Of a stretch of DNA of 16,850 nt, positions 5,489 through 8,586 are shown one piece after another (the stretch's first letter is position 1; the number at the start of each line of letters is the position of its first letter). The DNA is taken from NCBI GenBank assembly GCA_043814985.1, contig JBDRJK010000005.1, positions 1 to 16,850 on the forward strand. Reading direction: 5' to 3'. Both the position numbers and the translations under genes were made by a program. Source of the stretch: Candidatus Aenigmatarchaeota archaeon. GTDB lineage: Archaea > Aenigmatarchaeota > Aenigmatarchaeia > Aenigmatarchaeales > Aenigmatarchaeaceae. A model generated the notes under the pieces. That model was not told the DNA's origin. It did no database searches and saw only the letters and a program-made list of their open reading frames with translations.

Positions 5489-6211
5489 ATGGACTTTGAG
5501 ATGATTGGCATTCTTTTGGACAGGAAGATTTTCGGAAGAGGTTCTCATAATGCCCCATTGGAAATCAGGAGGATTTTCCCTAGAATGGAGACTTTCATCA
5601 ATGGAATAGATTTGGAGGAGCACGGTTTGGTTGATGTGGGGAACATTCTACCCAAGAATTATGACAAGATGATTATTGAGGCAAAAGTAAGGATAGATGG
5701 CAAATTCCCTGTTATCATTGGTGGGGACCATTCAATATCATATGTTGGTGTTAAAACAGTAAAACCCAAGGTTTTTGTCAGTTTTGATGCACATCCTGAT
5801 TGCGAGCCCGGAGAATTGAAGTTTGACTCTGTTACTCGCAAGATAGCCGAGGAAGGCTTCAAAACAGTCTTGTATGGGGTCAGGTCATCCTCGAAGAAAG
5901 AAACAGAATTCATTAAAGCCAAGAAAATAAAGATTGCAAGCTTGGAGGATATGAAAAAGATAAACGAGCCAACCTACCTGTCAATAGACTTTGATGTTCT
6001 TGACTCTTCAATAATGCCTGCTGTCAGCAACCCTGAGCCGGACGGTCTGACCTTCAAGGAAGTGATGGACGGAGTAAGGGCTCTAGCGAAGAATCTCGTG
6101 GCAATAGATTTTGTAGAATTTGTTCCAACAAAAAATACCACTCATACCCTGATGGCAGGAAAATTAATATACCATTCCCTAGCCGAGATTGTCAAGGCTA
6201 AACTTCAGTAG
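5489..6211 (+). CDS. Arginase/agmatinase-family ureohydrolase
   Basis: Metal-binding motifs GGDHS, DAHPD, SIDFDVLD, plus PEPDGL and DFVEFVP. Short at 240 aa. Confidence 0.88.
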   Translation: MDFEMIGILLDRKIFGRGSHNAPLEIRRIFPRMETFINGIDLEEHGLVDVGNILPKNYDKMIIEAKVRIDGKFPVIIGGDHSISYVGVKTVKPKVFVSFDAHPDCEPGELKFDSVTRKIAEEGFKTVLYGVRSSSKKETEFIKAKKIKIASLEDMKKINEPTYLSIDFDVLDSSIMPAVSNPEPDGLTFKEVMDGVRALAKNLVAIDFVEFVPTKNTTHTLMAGKLIYHSLAEIVKAKLQ

Positions 6212-6494
6212 ATTCGAAATTCTCAGGTGCGGCTTCTGGCATTGTAGGTGTTATGTGCTTTATTATGACAACGTCTCCCACACTGGTAACCAGTTGATAT
6301 GGGACTACAACACCTTTCTTGCCGCCAACCATGTCTGCCAAAAACGAGCCCTTTCCAGTCTGGATTACCAAAGCATTGATTCTGAACTTTGACAGGTTGA
6401 CTTCAATGTCAGCTACCCTTCCACAGAAAACTCCCCTGTTGGTAAAGACATCCTTGCCAAATACCTCTGAAAGATTTTTTACTGTTACGACCAT
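6198..6494 (-). CDS. PRC-barrel domain protein (CdpB-like, candidate FtsZ/SepF-associated division protein)
   Basis: LSEVFGKDVFTNRG..GRVADI and VVVPYQLVTSVGDVVII match archaeal PRC-barrels. GGAGG SD upstream. Confidence 0.85.
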   Translation of the reverse strand: MVVTVKNLSEVFGKDVFTNRGVFCGRVADIEVNLSKFRINALVIQTGKGSFLADMVGGKKGVVVPYQLVTSVGDVVIIKHITPTMPEAAPENFESTEV

Positions 6495-6534
6495 TATAAT
6501 TCCTCCAATTGATAATAATAAATTACATCGTAAA

Positions 6535-6542
6535 TATATAAA
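6535..6542. promoter_or_regulatory. TATA box (TATATAAA), probably the original tRNA-operon promoter and possibly bidirectional
   Basis: Begins 30 nt upstream of GCCGAGAT at 6565. The TATA-to-tRNA spacing is 33 nt for tRNA-Glu and 32 nt for tRNA-Leu in this window. Confidence 0.6.
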
Positions 6543-6564
6543 TTCCTATCAGATGTTTTAATTA

Positions 6565-7221
6565 GCCGAGATATTCTATGGAGAGTTTAAAAACAGTCGT
6601 GATGTCTGAAATCTGTGGCATATTTGCTGGAGATGGCACTTTATATAAGACAAATAGAAGCTTCGTTCTTGAGGTTAGGGGAGGAAAAGATGAAAAACTG
6701 TATTATGAAAATGTAGTAAAAACACTATTTGGAACAGCCTTTGATAAAAAATTAACAGTACTAAAAAGGTGCTATAATGGTGGCTATACACTTGGAATAA
6801 GAATTTGTGGCAATTTTGTTATGAACATTTTTCATAATTCTTTTGGTTTTCCTATAGGTAAAAAATCAAATATAGTAGAAGTTCCAAATTTTGTATTAAA
6901 ATCAAACGATCTTGAAATTTGGGCAGGTTATCTAAGAGGTGTGTTTGATACAGACGGTTCGATTTACTTGAAAAAGACCGGAAAAGGTAATAAATACAGA
7001 CAGCCAGTTATATCCTTCACTTCAGTTTCCCATATCCACCTACTTCAGATAAAGGAATTGTTAGATAGAATGGGATTTAATTGTTGGATAGAAAAGACTA
7101 ATTTCAGAGTTAGACTTTGTGGTTGGTCTACAATTGAAAGATTTTTAAAACTTGTAAAACCTAATAATCAAAGGCATTGGACACGAATTAAACAAAAGAT
7201 GCCAAGACTTTATGCCGAGAT
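6565..7221 (+). mobile_element. Putative free-standing homing-endonuclease insertion bounded by 8-bp direct repeat GCCGAGAT (6565-6572, 7214-7221)
   Basis: The repeat equals nt 1-8 of tRNA-Ser. The interval contains only a 5-nt spacer plus the LAGLIDADG ORF and is visibly more AT-rich than neighbouring housekeeping genes. Confidence 0.65.
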
Positions 7222-7228
7222 CGCATAA
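6578..7228 (+). CDS. Two-motif LAGLIDADG homing endonuclease family protein
   Basis: Motif 1 EICGIFAGDGTL, motif 2 GYLRGVFDTDGSI, basic beta-strand DNA-binding segments. No intein splicing motifs. Stop codon is inside tRNA-Ser. Confidence 0.92.
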   Translation: MESLKTVVMSEICGIFAGDGTLYKTNRSFVLEVRGGKDEKLYYENVVKTLFGTAFDKKLTVLKRCYNGGYTLGIRICGNFVMNIFHNSFGFPIGKKSNIVEVPNFVLKSNDLEIWAGYLRGVFDTDGSIYLKKTGKGNKYRQPVISFTSVSHIHLLQIKELLDRMGFNCWIEKTNFRVRLCGWSTIERFLKLVKPNNQRHWTRIKQKMPRLYAEIA

Positions 7229-7328
7229 TCTGGTAGTGCGCTAGATTTCGTAAGAAAGGCGAACCTGCTACCATTGGTGGAAAGTTAGTGGGCGCAAGCC
7301 CTTGAGGGTTCAAATCCCTCTCTCGGCG
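7214..7328 (+). tRNA. tRNA-Ser: tRNA-Ser(GCT) with two introns (7245-7263 at 30/31; 7271-7282 at 37/38)
   Basis: Acceptor GCCGAGA/TCTCGGC, discriminator G, long variable arm GGGC-GCAA-GCCC, T arm GAGGG-TTCAAAT-CCCTC. The spliced anticodon arm is CTAGC-CT-GCT-AA-GTTAG and both introns fold as BHB. Confidence 0.88.
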
Positions 7329-7337
7329 CTCATTTTT

Positions 7338-7410
7338 GGGCCGGTGGTCTAGCGGCTATGACGCCACCCTCACACGGTGGATATCGCAGGTTCGAGTCCT
7401 GCTCGGCCCA
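7338..7410 (+). tRNA. tRNA-Val: tRNA-Val(CAC), intronless
   Basis: GGGCCGG/TCGGCCC acceptor, CCACC-CT-CAC-AC-GGTGG anticodon arm, GCAGG-TTCGAGT-CCTGC T arm. Confidence 0.95.
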
Positions 7411-7411
7411 C

Positions 7412-7425
7412 AAAAACATTTAAAT
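7412..7425 (+). promoter_or_regulatory. BRE/TATA for tRNA-Glu (AAAAACA-TTTAAAT)
   Basis: TTTAAAT starts 33 nt upstream of the tRNA 5' G. Confidence 0.55.
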
Positions 7426-7451
7426 TACTCTGTATAACAATGTCTTAACAA

Positions 7452-7567
7452 GCCCCCATCGTCTAACCCGGTTAAGGACATGAGCCCTTCGAATTCATTT
7501 TCGAAGGATATGACTCAAAGATGAATGAGGTAAGCTCAGGATGTGGGTTCAAATCCCGCTGGGGGCA
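7452..7567 (+). tRNA. tRNA-Glu: tRNA-Glu(TTC) with 41-nt intron at 37/38 (7492-7532); unusual C33
   Basis: GCCCCCA/TGGGGGC acceptor. U11-A24, U13-G22, A46 and a 4-nt variable loop are Glu-type. TGAGC/GCTCA stem; BHB central helix CCTT/GAGG with a 9-bp inner helix. Confidence 0.8.
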
Positions 7568-7571
7568 TTCT

Positions 7572-7617
7572 TTTTCTAAAACACCTCTAAAACGGCGTTT
7601 TTCGAGGGTTTTGAAAA
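7572..7617. repeat. Imperfect 19-bp inverted repeat built from phased AAAAC/GTTTT units
   Basis: TTTTC-T-AAAAC-A-CCTC-T-AAAAC-GGC-GTTTT-TC-GAGG-GTTTT-GAAAA. Confidence 0.7.
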
Positions 7618-7659
7618 CCTTTAAAAAGCTTAGAAATTATGAATAAAGAAGGTGATTTG

Positions 7660-7824
7660 ATGAGTTTAATTGTAAGATCTAAAGTAAAGAAAGCTGCAAA
7701 GGGTGTAAGAGTCTCTGGAGACTTTTATGACGCTTTAGACAAGAAAGTCGAAGAAGTTATCAAAGGTGCTTCTGTAAGAGCAAAGGGAAACAAGAGAGCA
7801 ACACTCAGAGCAGTTGACATATAA
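7660..7824 (+). CDS. Short histone-fold protein (truncated alpha3; DUF1931/face-to-face-like histone)
   Basis: 54 aa from ATG 7660 (GGTGA SD at 7651, TTTAAAAA box at 7620). Contains LIVRSKVK, RVSGDF..ALD..V and RA..NKRATL...D (RxTxxxxD clamp). T-rich terminator follows. Confidence 0.88.
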   Translation: MSLIVRSKVKKAAKGVRVSGDFYDALDKKVEEVIKGASVRAKGNKRATLRAVDI

Positions 7825-7904
7825 TTTAATTTTTAGTTCCACTTTTTCTTTTTCTTTATTGTTTTAGTTAATTTTATATTAGTTCAAAAAATATTTCTCT
7901 ACAA

Positions 7905-7990
7905 GCAGAGGTAGCCAAGTCTGGTCAAAGGCGTAAGACTCAAGATCTTATCGGTTAGTCCGTTCGTCGGTTCGAATCCGGCCCTCTGCA
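7905..7990 (+). tRNA. tRNA-Leu: tRNA-Leu(CAA), intronless
   Basis: GCAGAGG/CCTCTGC acceptor, TAAGA-CT-CAA-GA-TCTTA, long variable arm, TTCGAAT loop. TTTATAT box 32 nt upstream. Confidence 0.95.
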
Positions 7991-8049
7991 TTCCTATTTT
8001 TTTGGAAAACTCTAATGGGTTTAAATAATTTTATATTCTAAAATTTGGT

Positions 8050-8586
8050 ATGACTGTACCAGTAATAAATCCCTTTAAAGATTTAGGTAAATGTTTTTAC
8101 TTTCCTGTAGAGACAACAGAAGGCTTTCTGTCTGGAACAGAACTTGCTGAATTCACAGCTGCTCCTTTAAACAAGATTCGCAGAGACCTTCTAAATAGAC
8201 CTAGATTTTATAACCCCAATGATCTTACCTTTCTGAAGCATTATATGGAAGGTAAAAAAAACAAATTGAAAATATTACCTAAAGAAGGTGTTAGTGTTGC
8301 TATAACATCAATTCATGTTGGACCAGACTATAAAGGTCCTCTAGAACTACCGCCCGGAACAGAGTGTATAAAAATTTATGATTTAGAAAGCAAGGATTAT
8401 CTCGGGGTTCAGGTGATACATTATTGTCACAGATTCAAAGGGAATAATCAAGAAGAAACAAGTTTTATACCCTTTAAAAACGAGATGAGAAGTGCACACA
8501 CTGCAGTAAAAATAGAAGATTTTGGAATCGATGAGGACCTTATTGATATTGAGGACTCATTTTCAACTCTAAAAAATTATTGGTGA
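8050..8586 (+). CDS. Hypothetical protein (orphan-like)
   Basis: 178-aa ORF filling the gap, with a TTTAAATA box about 30 nt upstream. No recognisable motif. Confidence 0.65.
   Translation: MTVPVINPFKDLGKCFYFPVETTEGFLSGTELAEFTAAPLNKIRRDLLNRPRFYNPNDLTFLKHYMEGKKNKLKILPKEGVSVAITSIHVGPDYKGPLELPPGTECIKIYDLESKDYLGVQVIHYCHRFKGNNQEETSFIPFKNEMRSAHTAVKIEDFGIDEDLIDIEDSFSTLKNYW

Follow-up and report, generated by a model that had tools for sequence, protein, structure and literature searches.

A putative free-standing LAGLIDADG homing-endonuclease gene in the 5' leader of an archaeal tRNA-Ser(GCU) gene

The usual view is that homing endonuclease genes survive chiefly by residing within self-splicing introns or inteins. 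In the genome of Candidatus Aenigmatarchaeota archaeon, we have found a LAGLIDADG gene that points to a different refuge, namely a tRNA 5' leader, where it would have inherited a strong constitutive promoter. The gene lies outside any intron or intein, abuts tRNA-Ser(GCU) and has a canonical promoter upstream. We consider it probable (roughly 70%) that it represents a free-standing homing-endonuclease gene living in the leader of this tRNA. Comparison with related genomes and metagenomes shows that LAGLIDADG genes directly before tRNA genes form a large and apparently undescribed class. The stretch of DNA analysed, hereafter the window, comprises 16,850 nt of contig JBDRJK010000005.1 (assembly GCA_043814985.1), read on the forward strand.

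The tRNA-Ser(GCU) locus and its alleles

The features of the locus are collected in Table 1. An initial reading of the sequence, made without database searches, had listed a TATA box, an 8-mer, a spacer, an ATG, an open reading frame (ORF) and a second 8-mer, all of which lie where it had placed them; the TATA-to-tRNA distances that it had given for neighbouring genes also hold, the boxes beginning at -33 (tRNA at 7452) and -32 (tRNA at 7905). Set between the tRNA promoter and the tRNA body, the 649-bp cassette consists of a 5-nt leader and the ORF, although its register is ambiguous by 8 bp and 6565-7213 is equally possible. The last 15 bases of the ORF are nt 1-15 of tRNA-Ser(GCU), with the stop codon TAA (7226-7228) coinciding with tRNA nt 13-15. 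No host reading frame around the ORF was found in the window. The LAGLIDADG gene is the only ORF within the insert, which contains no integrase or recombinase gene. Downstream, tRNA-Val(CAC) appears to depend, as does tRNA-Ser, on transcription from upstream. A T5 run, in addition to those within the ORF (see below), lies between tRNA-Ser and the promoter-less tRNA-Val.

Table 1. Features of the tRNA-Ser(GCU) locus, in window coordinates
Feature	Position	Strand	Evidence or remark
TATA box TATATAAA	6535..6542	+	Putative original tRNA-Ser promoter, now ahead of the endonuclease gene; also found upstream of tRNA-Ser in G002, where the site is empty
Upstream copy of tRNA-Ser nt 1-8, GCCGAGAT	6565..6572	+	tRNA start position in the empty G002 and G003 alleles
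Spacer ATTCT	6573-6577	+	Between upstream 8-mer and ATG
649-bp insertion relative to empty alleles	6573..7221	+	G002 and G003 alignments; X5 contig; rebuilt empty site
Free-standing double-motif LAGLIDADG ORF, 216 aa	6578..7228	+	Pfam LAGLIDADG_3; conserved motifs; AlphaFold model
Second 8-mer GCCGAGAT	7214-7221	+	Begins the complete tRNA-Ser
tRNA-Ser(GCU), complete, anticodon 7267-7269	7214..7328	+	Matches the Rfam tRNA model with 39.1 bits (gathering score 29); lacks its own TATA box
19-nt BHB mini-intron, tRNA position 30/31	7245..7263	+	Absent from G002 and G003; BHB test
12-nt BHB mini-intron, canonical position 37/38	7271..7282	+	Absent from G002, G003 and the X5 contig; BHB test
tRNA-Val(CAC), no promoter of its own	7338..7410	+	9 nt behind tRNA-Ser

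The identity of the tRNA was established by comparison with its intron-less orthologues in two genomes of the same genus, G002 and G003; the features of the G002 orthologue used for typing were CUAGC-CUGCUAA-GUUAG, a long variable arm and G73. With default settings ARAGORN misses the gene at 7214-7328 and, when introns are allowed, mis-types it as Glu(ttc). The amino-acid calls of this program for intron-bearing tRNAs (for example Glu for Ser, 'Stop' and 'Pyl') were not relied on.

Alleles at this site were compared among three same-genus genomes (G001, G002 and G003), one genome from another genus (G012) and DNA contigs from four sequencing runs, of which X1 and X2 belong to one study, X3 to another and X5 to an independent study. 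The search for empty alleles proposed in the sequence-only reading was successful in G002, in G003 and in one environmental contig from X5. In G002 (contig C10), the empty site bears a single 8-mer, and its flanks are 89% identical to those of the window over 1084 nt on the left and 93.8% identical over 290 nt on the right. The predicted result of deleting one repeat together with the interval, a normal promoter-tRNA gene, matches the real G002 sequence at 98 of 101 junction positions. The same site is empty in G003 (contig C15), again with a single 8-mer and with the tRNA beginning exactly at the equivalent of 6565, while the X5 contig (12,776 nt) joins 6564 to 7214, skipping 649 bases, with eight letters fitting either side. 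Both junctions of the occupied form are bridged by contigs of X1, X2 and X3.

A different gene occupies the junction in G001 (contig C5), namely a LAGLIDADG_3 member (E 2e-16) that is 31% identical to the window protein over 120 aa, and a decaying relative, 60% identical and with an internal deletion, is found in G012 (contig C8). Otherwise, the window protein has matches of only about 28-30% identity in the three same-genus genomes, at other places. Presence at this one conserved site is therefore sporadic: empty in G002, G003 and X5, occupied in the window, X1-X3 and G012, and taken by a different gene in G001. Within a single genus, the tRNA-Ser gene comes in three forms: empty and intron-less, empty with one intron, or joined to one of two unrelated endonuclease genes, the mini-introns differing between the two. 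The protein encoded at locus L187 (68% identity to the window protein) has an N-terminus of the G001 type (MNLQITPEKAEI against MNLEITPEKAEI), which indicates mosaic exchange at the tRNA-Ser site. Not every allele can be polarized with certainty, since the empty X5 allele could equally be the product of a precise deletion between the 8-bp repeats.

The 8-mer GCCGAGAT occurs three times in the window (6182, 6565 and 7214), always on the + strand, against an expectation of 0.17; three copies were reached in 1 of 200 shuffles. The copy at 6182 falls within an agmatinase coding region, is conserved there in G002 and G001, and is best taken as a coincidence of coding sequence. A chance origin of the pair flanking the ORF is ruled out by the empty alleles (the G002 junction and the X5 contig). 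The sequence-only reading had made an upstream copy of the tRNA 5' end at other tRNA-adjacent LAGLIDADG genes one of its test criteria; as a hallmark of the class, such a copy must be abandoned. An upstream duplicate, with at least 10 of 12 positions matching the tRNA 5' end, accompanies only 4 of 29 and 3 of 47 tRNA-adjacent LAGLIDADG loci in two sets, the same level of match arising in about 0.6% of mismatched locus pairs, and none is present at L187, the closest relative, or in a tRNA-Thr case from G003. Because most other such genes lack the upstream copy, the 8-bp duplication is a locus-specific scar rather than a hallmark. Most likely, the upstream 8-mer is a stump of the resident tRNA, whose 5' end stayed behind at the founding insertion and was then inherited with the left arm of the cassette; it is not a target duplication of the transposase type. 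A decayed copy, GCTGGGAT, lies 30 nt after the start of the TATA box in G012.

Bulge-helix-bulge (BHB) tests separate the insert from the mini-introns of the tRNA behind it. A BHB at the two intron boundaries consists of a 4-bp central helix with a 3-nt bulge on either side, the cut sites lying in the bulges. Over the nine registers allowed by the repeat (0 to 8), none gives a 4-bp central helix, with 0-3 of the four central pairs formed and outer helices of 2 bp or less. The mini-introns of 19 nt and 12 nt both form the complete central helix (4/4), with outer helices of 1 and 4 bp and of 3 and 2 bp, respectively; the random rate of a BHB-like fit is 0.65%. The earlier statement that the insert is not BHB-spliced is thereby confirmed. 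A scan of region 6000-8300 against Rfam (E up to 1) returned no group I or group II intron among eight matches, which comprise four to tRNA, three to plastid UTR models (antisense to tRNAs) and one weak match to the sRNA rli28.

Occupied Ser(GCU) alleles carry mini-introns at 30/31 and 37/38 in the window, at 29/30 in G012, and at 8/9 and 37/38 in G001. Judged from lengths only, and with genomes mixed and lineages not independent, introns are present in about 22 of 29 endonuclease-linked tRNAs versus about 13 of 34 other tRNAs of the window's own genome.

The LAGLIDADG protein and its relatives before tRNA genes

The ORF matches Pfam LAGLIDADG_3 (PF14528) with 42.1 bits (E 1e-10; cut-off 22.5 bits). 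Single-chain enzymes of this family have two LAGLIDADG helices, with a catalytic acidic residue at the end of each. In an alignment of 39 homologues, G18-D19-G20 of motif 1 (GIFAGDG) and F123-D124 of motif 2 (RGVFDTDG) are invariant; D126-G127 are present in the window protein, and the second catalytic Asp has been lost in some family members. A search against the sequences of solved structures gave no true match, only a 12.7-bit motif match to I-MsoI. The AlphaFold2 model (pLDDT 95.1, pTM 0.92) shows the order alpha-beta-beta-alpha-beta-beta-alpha twice, and Foldseek returned 144 PDB matches at E <= 0.001, the top ones listed being LAGLIDADG enzymes, inteins, maturases and WhiA. The best match is I-Tsp061I (2dch; TM 0.68/0.72), and I-DmoI scores 0.60/0.71, with a sequence identity to these structures of only 11-18%. 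Against L187, dN is 0.21 and dS is 0.94 (dN/dS about 0.23). Collectively, the catalytic motifs, the confidently predicted fold and the dN/dS ratio argue that the protein has been kept functional, although DNA cleavage and the target are predictions.

Relatives were collected from genomes and metagenomes; in the latter, the single window protein as query did not find them, and a search with a seven-sequence alignment yielded 80 loci. A tRNA on the same strand starts at the end of the ORF in 27 of 66 relatives' loci, in 42 of 66 species-representative loci and in 54 of the 71 metagenome loci with room for a tRNA. By comparison, among 725 ORFs of at least 140 aa in the window's own genome, 11 have such a tRNA at their end; four of these 11 are LAGLIDADG genes, leaving 7 of 721 for other ORFs. 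Of the candidate class of tRNA-leader elements proposed in the sequence-only reading, the broad association of LAGLIDADG genes with tRNA 5' ends consequently stands, but without the duplication. Rfam was applied to 10 of 19 relatives' loci, placing one (L017) inside a 23S rRNA gene and detecting no tRNA at seven others; the remaining nine of the 19 were examined with ARAGORN and a custom tRNA finder.

The association is specific as well as broad. Read by eye, the tRNAs behind close relatives are Ser(GCU) in 10 of 11 cases (L101, L102, L104-L109, L112 and L116, from the tRNAs available for L101-L116 excluding L113-L115; L111 is the one that does not read as such), and the same tRNA stands behind 8 of the 10 closest metagenome loci. 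The proteins themselves record this neighbourhood, 16 of 39 homologues ending in [EQGS][VI]A, the in-frame reading of tRNA-Ser nt 1-12. The lineage of the window protein is tied to tRNA-Ser(GCU) across DPANN archaea. Genes of this kind appear to number in the hundreds among DPANN archaea and, judging from record titles, CPR bacteria. No description of LAGLIDADG genes in tRNA leaders was found in the literature outside subscription journals and supplements.

Promoter capture, leader processing and rival explanations

The sequence-only reading had also proposed that the element captured the promoter of the tRNA. Under a scoring matrix derived from 29 tRNA promoters of the window's own genome, the region before tRNA-Ser reaches only -2.7, versus 3.7 to 9.8 for the 29 control tRNAs, while the TATA box that begins 30 nt ahead of 6565, the first base of the upstream 8-mer, reaches 7.0 and is the only canonical box. 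tRNA-Ser has, as claimed, no canonical promoter of its own. Position 6565 is the probable transcription start, and the ORF begins 13 nt after the start site predicted for the canonical promoter. In a second case, on contig C9 of G003, the ATG of another family member lies exactly at the tRNA-Thr +1 position of three empty alleles. Promoter capture with co-transcription of ORF and tRNA is the best reading of this arrangement.

Some features bear on this reading from the other side. Sense-strand T5 runs inside the ORF, at 6828 and 7142, could end archaeal transcription and thus argue against read-through; however, tRNA-Val, which lacks a promoter, also lies behind such a run. In addition, AATTAAAC at -28 and other A/T-rich stretches in the ORF could represent a weak internal promoter, and in about half of the relatives' endonuclease-linked tRNAs a good box lies inside the 3' end of the ORF.

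The 5' leader of tRNAs is removed by RNase P in every cell, and the RNA component of this enzyme is present in the genome (88.2 bits). In the mechanism we propose, the old tRNA promoter would start an mRNA at or near 6565, and the transcript would extend past the end of the ORF to include both tRNA-Ser and tRNA-Val. RNase P would cut at 7213/7214 and free the tRNA, so that the host would lose nothing, while full-length protein would come only from uncut precursor, because the stop codon sits inside the tRNA. The enzyme would cut endonuclease-free tRNA-Ser alleles, and repair from the occupied allele would copy the cassette in, as in intronless homing. One feature unexplained by the homing reading is the immunity of the occupied allele: as a result of the 8-bp duplication, a recognition site centred near tRNA nt 1-8 would still be largely present at both junctions. 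The suggestion of the sequence-only reading that the insertion splits its own target meets the same difficulty.

This difficulty is addressed by an explanation that is a variant of the homing reading rather than its opposite, and which we regard as possible but clearly the less likely of the forms. Here, the mobile unit would be the endonuclease gene plus a replacement tRNA 5' part or whole tRNA, possibly with mini-introns, and the cassette would land in a resident tRNA gene via a break and partly non-homologous repair. The resident nt 1-8 would then be a dead stump, and the mini-introns would interrupt the true target in the anticodon arm, shielding the occupied allele ('collaborative homing'). 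Supporting evidence comes from contig C13 of the window's own genome, where the feature that defines this variant, a replacement end together with a remnant of the original, is clear. There, a resident tRNA-Arg(CCU) is broken, with nt 1-12 and the last ~30 nt kept and ~36 nt lost. The two pieces are separated by a LAGLIDADG gene, a TATA box and a second tRNA-Arg(CCU), which is new, complete and interrupted by two mini-introns; the T-arm of the new copy is of the G003 allele type, and the tRNA-Arg(CCU) of G002 (contig C61) is intact and intron-less. Elsewhere, upstream stumps vary in length (8 to about 25 nt), and at several loci (L007, L015, L087 and L099) the stump does not have the sequence of the tRNA that follows it; the stump in G012 has T3 in common with that genome's own tRNA. 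Mini-introns occur in the occupied Ser(GCU) alleles of the window, G012 and G001 and in neither of the empty alleles of G002 and G003. Against this, the empty X5 allele retains the 30/31 intron, a near-identical copy of which resides in the paralogous tRNA-Ser(GGA) (C13:26820), so this intron need not have arrived with the cassette; intron-less endonuclease-linked tRNAs are known (the tRNA-Thr of G003:C9, L109 and L194); the window has no 3' stump; and introns, judged from tRNA length, are common in the genome anyway (about 16 of 37 tRNAs). At the window locus, eight bases alone are too few to tell which copy is original, and co-conversion is only hinted at, by the mosaic N-termini (L187) and the allele-type T-arms at C13.

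We consider it improbable that the gene encodes a domesticated LAGLIDADG-fold protein, immobile today and kept beside its client for a tRNA-linked host function, be it in regulating the tRNA operon as a DNA-binding protein similar to WhiA or in helping to process intron-rich pre-tRNAs. The arrangement is indeed old and widespread, the protein is under purifying selection, its fold also matches WhiA (TM 0.67), one source names relatives WhiA, the second catalytic Asp is missing in some members and the linked tRNAs are rich in introns. However, the site is empty in two of three same-genus genomes and holds a 31%-identical gene in the third, copy number varies from 0 to 12 matches among related genomes, and decayed copies exist (G012). 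All homologues aligned have the catalytic Asp of motif 1, and the window protein retains an intact motif 2. WhiA, moreover, carries an extra C-terminal HTH domain, which the 216-aa window protein lacks.

Less probable still is a relic of integrase-mediated integration at the tRNA 5' end, with att duplication and the LAGLIDADG gene as leftover cargo. The direct repeat of tRNA nt 1-8 at both borders would fit, as would the resemblance to the Caldiarchaeum tRNA-Thr locus as described in PMC3293823, but the LAGLIDADG ORF is all that the 649-bp insert contains, 8 bp is far shorter than att sites (44 bp for SSV1, as given in PMC3293823), and members of one protein lineage accompany this tRNA in many lineages, whether or not a repeat is present. 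An intein and a group I or II intron are ruled out, the former by the lack of a host reading frame around the ORF and the latter by the Rfam result; the 39 archaeal group I introns reported by Nawrocki et al. (2018) all sit in rRNA genes. That the insert is an intron of the BHB or group I type, oddly located at tRNA position 0-8 and spliced out of the transcript, is scarcely credible: BHB introns at odd positions are common in the lineage, the same tRNA in G001 having a full one at 8/9 (4/4 central pairs, outer helices of 4 and 3 bp), but no register of the insert exceeds three central pairs whereas all window controls pass, the intron families are absent from the eight Rfam matches, and the downstream tRNA is already complete without an upstream exon.

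Relation to known systems

If co-transcription and cleavage are true, leader removal would be a third general route to harmlessness for the host, beside intron and intein splicing. More tentatively, cassettes of this kind might drive the fragmentation of archaeal tRNA genes and seed odd introns, with RNase P leader removal as the third route. Each invasion would then break a tRNA gene, leave stumps and install a copy with BHB mini-introns that interrupt the recognition site. The mini-introns, moving together with the cassette, would confer immunity and make this an archaeal version of collaborative homing, and RNase P processing of the 650-nt leader would also throttle the enzyme, with excision of the tRNA removing the stop codon of the mRNA. 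The locus also offers a natural experiment on the long-standing question of what makes interrupted and split tRNA genes so common in archaea. At the neighbouring tRNA-Arg locus, a cassette of this type has physically disrupted the resident gene. As small monomers whose predicted targets lie in tRNA genes and are conserved, these enzymes would further represent a pool of natural meganucleases with predictable sites.

The closest structural counterparts, I-Tsp061I and I-DmoI, are single-chain, two-motif enzymes of about 200 aa and the same Pfam family (LAGLIDADG_3), but their genes reside in spliced BHB introns of rRNA genes, whereas the window gene is devoid of a BHB and lies in a tRNA leader. 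In fungal mitochondria, mobile ORF elements of the atp6 type carry a replacement gene end. As in that system, the cassette would bring a copy of the displaced part of its target and leave a dead remnant, which is clear at C13 and possible for the window 8-mer; the atp6-type elements, however, displace a protein C-terminus, while the piece in the window is the 5' end of an RNA gene and only 8 nt long.

With respect to genomic setting, a close parallel is offered by the free-standing homing endonucleases of T-even phages ('intronless homing'), especially SegB of the phage T4 tRNA cluster, described (PMC2330249) as an endonuclease gene outside introns and inteins, beside tRNA genes and missing in relatives, whose spread is presumed to proceed via cutting of the endonuclease-free allele and copying with flanking DNA (PMC2330249). 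SegB is a GIY-YIG enzyme of a phage, whereas the window enzyme is a LAGLIDADG protein of cellular genomes (DPANN and, by record titles, CPR bacteria). Unlike SegB as described there, the window gene is fused to the first bases of the tRNA and borrows from it a stop codon and a promoter, and its product is a predicted rather than a demonstrated DNA-cutting enzyme.

Locus heterogeneity has been reported for tRNA-Thr(GGU) of Caldiarchaeum subterraneum (Sugahara et al. 2012, PMC3293823). According to that account, a tRNA 5' fragment is followed by an insertion with a same-strand ORF just upstream of a complete tRNA with a gained intron, and some close relatives have the insertion where others do not (PMC3293823), both as in the case described here. 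The Caldiarchaeum insert is larger, at 1.8 kb with a repeated region, and duplicates 27 nt of the tRNA (649 bp and 8 nt in the window); its ORF was guessed to be a recombinase, and the model of the authors is site-specific recombination of the integrase type (PMC3293823). Finally, the insertions described in rRNA genes of CPR bacteria (PMC11270868) likewise place LAGLIDADG genes in stable-RNA genes of ultra-small organisms, and there, too, the insertion is absorbed by RNA processing rather than by protein function. Those insertions, as described, lie inside the rRNA genes (PMC11270868), whereas the window gene stands before its tRNA, within the leader.

Layout and turnover of the tRNA-Ser insertion

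Between the promoter and the body of a tRNA-Ser(GCU) gene lies a 649-bp cassette that encodes a LAGLIDADG protein and is bounded by two copies of tRNA nucleotides 1-8. The sequence-only reading had described a TATA box, both 8-mers, a 5-nt spacer, an ATG, the ORF and the tRNA, and each was found where it had been placed. The last five codons and the stop codon of the ORF are nucleotides 1-15 of tRNA-Ser, so that the ORF terminates within the tRNA. Identity as Ser(GCU) is given by exons matching the intron-less tRNA of G002 and G003 (two genomes of the same genus), the anticodon arm CUAGC-CUGCUAA-GUUAG, a long variable arm and G73; ARAGORN misses this tRNA by default and, with introns allowed, wrongly types it as Glu. 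Both mini-introns meet a strict bulge-helix-bulge (BHB) test at the exact boundaries set by the G002 comparison. A further tRNA downstream carries about 47 extra nucleotides around its anticodon, which are probably two introns; it is Arg(tcg) according to ARAGORN and Glu in the sequence-only reading, and a UUUUCGA loop would fit Glu(UUC).

Features of the tRNA-Ser locus, and the other tRNA-linked LAGLIDADG genes of the same genome (G000)
Feature	Position	Remarks
Agmatinase-family gene	5489-6211
Third copy of GCCGAGAT	6182-6189	last codons of the agmatinase-family gene; reads Ala-Glu-Ile
Promoter TATA box TATATAAA	6535-6542	starts 30 nt before the upstream 8-mer
Upstream 8-mer GCCGAGAT	6565-6572	followed by ATTCT
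LAGLIDADG ORF	ATG 6578 to TAA 7226-7228	Pfam LAGLIDADG_3, E 1e-10; before tRNA-Ser(GCU)
T5 runs	6828 and 7142	ORF sense strand
Second GCCGAGAT	from 7214	first bases of the tRNA
tRNA-Ser(GCU)	7214-7328	Rfam 39.1 bits
Mini-intron, position 30/31	7245-7263	19 nt; extra relative to G002; BHB passed
Mini-intron, position 37/38	7271-7282	12 nt; extra relative to G002; BHB passed
tRNA-Val(CAC)		9 nt after tRNA-Ser; without a promoter of its own
tRNA, Arg(tcg) or Glu	7452-7567	Rfam 44 bits
LAGLIDADG gene	C13:9271	before tRNA-Arg(CCU)
LAGLIDADG_3 gene (L181)	C13:26117-26924	E 1e-16; before tRNA-Ser(GGA), fused to its 5' end
LAGLIDADG_3 gene (L182)	C15:37916-38752	E 2e-18; fused to tRNA 5' end

Where 0.17 copies of the 8-mer would be expected, the window has three. 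Because its third copy is coding sequence of the agmatinase-family gene, conserved in G002 and G001 (another genome of the genus), that copy appears coincidental; it encodes the same residues as the tRNA-derived ORF end. A chance origin of the flanking pair is decisively countered by comparison with relatives. On contig C10 of G002 the left flank can be aligned through the upstream 8-mer inclusive (89% over 1084 nt) and the right flank from the second 8-mer on; the two alignments share 8 nt of G002, which therefore has one 8-mer and no ORF. G003 (C15) has the same empty arrangement, and once 649 bp are taken out of the window, 98 of 101 positions across the junction agree with G002. Among environmental sequencing runs, a 12.8-kb contig of X5, from an unrelated study, joins 6564 to 7214, the 8 letters fitting either side, and the occupied form is bridged at both junctions by contigs from X1 and X2, of a single study, and from X3, of another. 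The empty alleles called for by the sequence-only reading thus exist in nature alongside the occupied one.

The site has also held other occupants. In G001 (C5) the interval separating the corresponding promoter from tRNA-Ser(GCU) is occupied by a different LAGLIDADG_3 gene (E 2e-16; locus L097, reverse strand), with only 31% identity to the window protein over 120 aa. The 3' end of that gene reads as a degenerate version of tRNA nucleotides 1-16, and the real tRNA comes next, with mini-introns at 8/9 (full BHB) and 37/38. G012, of another genus of the family, has on C8 an internally deleted relative at 60% identity, together with a decayed upstream 8-mer (GCTGGGAT versus GCTGAGGT in its own tRNA, which has an intron at 29/30). 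Searching with the window protein in the three genomes of the genus gives matches of only about 28-30% identity, all at other places. The closest relative found anywhere, L187 (68% amino acid identity), is located at this site too, following the same gene as in the window, and its ORF ends within tRNA-Ser (...RIYAEVA*). No upstream 8-mer is present there; the ATG comes 31 nt downstream of where the TATA box begins, and residues 1-12 match the G001-type gene. The sequences suggest that rival cassettes have recombined here. Taken together, the different gene in G001, the decaying relative in G012, the same-genus absences and the exchange in L187 point to a site repeatedly invaded, exchanged and vacated. 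Such a pattern is unlike that of a vertically kept gene.

At their 5' ends, the otherwise about 30%-identical endonuclease genes share about 40 nt (TCTATGAACCTT...GCTGA.ATTT) and 11 of 12 N-terminal residues (window 6573-6600 against L187:838-886 and reverse-strand L097). The G001 intron at 8/9, an unusual position, is 18 nt long and pairs at 4/4 central positions, its outer helices measuring 4 and 3 bp; it begins with bases (AGATATTC.AT) similar to the left end of the window cassette (GAGATATTCTAT).

The window protein has been under purifying selection, as judged from dN 0.21 and dS 0.94 against L187. An alignment of 39 homologues (41-66% identity) shows G18-D19-G20 and F123-D124 to be invariant; the second motif (FDTDG), complete here, is lost in several relatives. 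Searching solved structures by sequence alone gave nothing useful. The AlphaFold model, a confident one (pLDDT 95, pTM 0.92), predicts a fold of the I-Tsp061I / I-DmoI type, these archaeal intron endonucleases being its best structural matches (TM 0.68/0.72 and 0.60/0.71); other LAGLIDADG enzymes, inteins, maturases and WhiA rank next. Endonuclease activity and target are both putative.

Splicing and transcription

Since the downstream tRNA is complete, a splice would be limited to nine registers within the repeat. In none of the nine does the 4-bp central helix needed for a BHB form (best 3/4 pairs, with almost no outer helix), and the two mini-introns of the window and the two of G001 all score 4/4; a BHB intron is therefore rejected, as the sequence-only reading had it. 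The intein that it had likewise dismissed is rejected for want of a host reading frame around the ORF, and a catalytic intron because Rfam finds none at the locus.

Promoter capture, with read-through into the tRNA, is the best reading of the window, based on TATA scores and on the position of a start codon in G003. A matrix built from 29 other tRNA promoters of G000 (scores 3.7 to 9.8, median 7.6; most boxes beginning at -29 to -35) gives 7.0, at -30, before the upstream 8-mer and -2.7, lower than all 29 controls, before tRNA-Ser itself. On C9 of G003, the ATG of another family member falls exactly at the +1 of tRNA-Thr(CGU) in the empty G000, G001 and G002 alleles; there the tRNA starts 2 nt past the stop codon, with no duplication. 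The old tRNA promoter would accordingly start an mRNA with a 13-nt leader, and the transcript would continue through the ORF into tRNA-Ser and tRNA-Val. The T5 runs could reduce read-through. An RNase P RNA is present in the genome (88 bits). We infer the RNA-level mechanism at this locus. Elsewhere in G000, the score is -1.8 for the tRNA at C15:38663, 8.8 at C13:9999 and 6.7 at C13:26820. Endonuclease-linked tRNAs of relatives score below the controls (median 5.6, n=23; one-sided Mann-Whitney p = 0.002, with related lineages non-independent), about half having a usable box within the ORF end.

tRNA specificity, the wider class and the origin of the 8-mer

In a scan like the one proposed, a large share of LAGLIDADG ORFs have a same-strand tRNA starting at their end or slightly beyond it. 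Among ORFs of 140-360 aa, a same-strand tRNA lies at the end of 27 of 66 in relatives (72 loci in all; L006, L070 and L090 were just beyond the window used or seen by ARAGORN only) and of 42 of 66 at species-representative loci (80 in all); for metagenome loci with room for a tRNA (80 in all) the figure is 54 of 71. An in-house T-arm/acceptor finder, yielding 37 tRNAs in G000, close to the ARAGORN list, was used. The offsets from ORF end to tRNA start cluster at -10, -15 and -24, that is, at stop codons within the tRNA D arm. Across G000, such a tRNA lies at the end of 11 of 725 ORFs of at least 140 aa, and four of the 11 are LAGLIDADG genes. Typed by eye (a U-GCU-A loop in its stem and a Ser-type D arm), Ser(GCU) stands behind 10 of 11 printed tRNAs of L101-L116 without L113-L115 (L101, L102, L104-L109, L112 and L116; L111 does not read as such) and behind 8 of the 10 closest metagenome loci (L189 and L195 not assigned). 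The ORF end [EQGS][VI]A, an in-frame reading of tRNA-Ser nucleotides 1-12, recurs in 16 of 39 homologues. By record titles, the hosts include Woesearchaeota, Nanoarchaeota, Pacearchaeota, Micrarchaeota, Aenigmatarchaeota, Iainarchaeum and several CPR bacteria.

Several further observations concern this class. Records titled as CPR (Vogelbacteria, Yonathbacteria, Saccharibacteria, Moranbacteria) show ORFs running into type II tRNAs (L137, L157, L164, L166, L168, L174), L137 with an upstream copy of the tRNA 5' end at 10/12 positions. In a second arrangement the ORF is convergent with the tRNA, their 3' ends abutting or overlapping (L009, L018, L024, L062, L066, L076, L138, L146, L149, L175), with 6, 4 and 5 cases in the three samples. 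The L181 ORF ends in a decayed copy of tRNA nucleotides 1-14; upstream, after a promoter resembling that of the window, is a fragment like tRNA-Ser nucleotides ~17-30. G000, rated 91% complete, has only 37 tRNA genes by two methods, among which several isoacceptors (for example Gln, Asn and initiator Met) were not seen; the ARAGORN 'Pyl' and 'Stop' calls are probably intron artefacts, and the genome may hold further disrupted or split tRNA genes. A 344-nt candidate (L186, C19:43282-43625), with matching acceptor and T arm and a very long interior, may represent a tRNA that holds a large insert, or else a spurious call.

The upstream copy of the tRNA 5' end, proposed as a trait of the class, did not generalize. 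Stumps resembling tRNA are up to about 25 nt long or missing altogether, and most do not match the tRNA that follows: at least 10 of 12 positions agree at 4/29 loci in the relatives' sample and 3/47 in the wider one, against about 0.6% of mismatched locus pairs. This variable length rules out a fixed-length target duplication, and the 8-bp repeat is best regarded as a local scar. Locus C13 of G000 offers the clearest model. The matching tRNA-Arg(CCU) of G002 (C61) is intact and intron-less; at G000:C13:9206-10160 (L002:1400-2354) the resident gene is broken, nucleotides 1-12 and the last ~30 nt surviving and ~36 nt gone. Filling the gap is a ~907-bp cassette in which a LAGLIDADG gene (239 aa) and a TATA box accompany a new, complete tRNA-Arg(CCU); this tRNA has two mini-introns and a T arm of the G003 allele type. 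By analogy, we read the 8-mer of the window as a stump of the resident tRNA 5' end, left by a founding, partly non-homologous insertion and since then carried with the left arm of the cassette. The 8-mer is decayed in G012 and absent from L187 and G001, whose left end was exchanged.

The insertion had been thought to split its own target. The left junction retains everything up to nucleotide 8 and the right junction everything from nucleotide 1, so a target centred on nucleotides 1-8 would be only partly disrupted. The recognition site may thus extend far into the promoter spacer, or lie elsewhere in the tRNA and be interrupted by the mini-introns. This latter explanation has some support, in that introns are seen in occupied Ser(GCU) alleles but not in those of G002 and G003, which are empty; however, the empty X5 allele keeps the 30/31 intron, an almost identical one sits in the paralogous tRNA-Ser(GGA) at C13, and some endonuclease-linked tRNAs are intron-less.

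Comparison with known systems

The structural and evolutionary part of the sequence-only reading is supported; the duplication as a class signature is not. We class the locus as a candidate homing endonuclease gene of the free-standing kind, set in a new genomic niche. Subscription-only papers and supplements aside, the literature yielded no description of LAGLIDADG genes fused to tRNA 5' ends. The predicted fold is shared with I-Tsp061I and I-DmoI, whose genes reside in spliced rRNA introns. Architecturally, the closest precedent is a tRNA-Thr locus of Caldiarchaeum, in which a 5' fragment precedes a 1.8-kb insertion whose ORF lies directly before a tRNA that has gained an intron; its authors invoke integrase-type recombination (PMC3293823). 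Functionally, the nearest system is intronless homing in T-even phages, where the endonucleases are free-standing and SegB, of the T4 tRNA cluster, is the notable case (PMC2330249).
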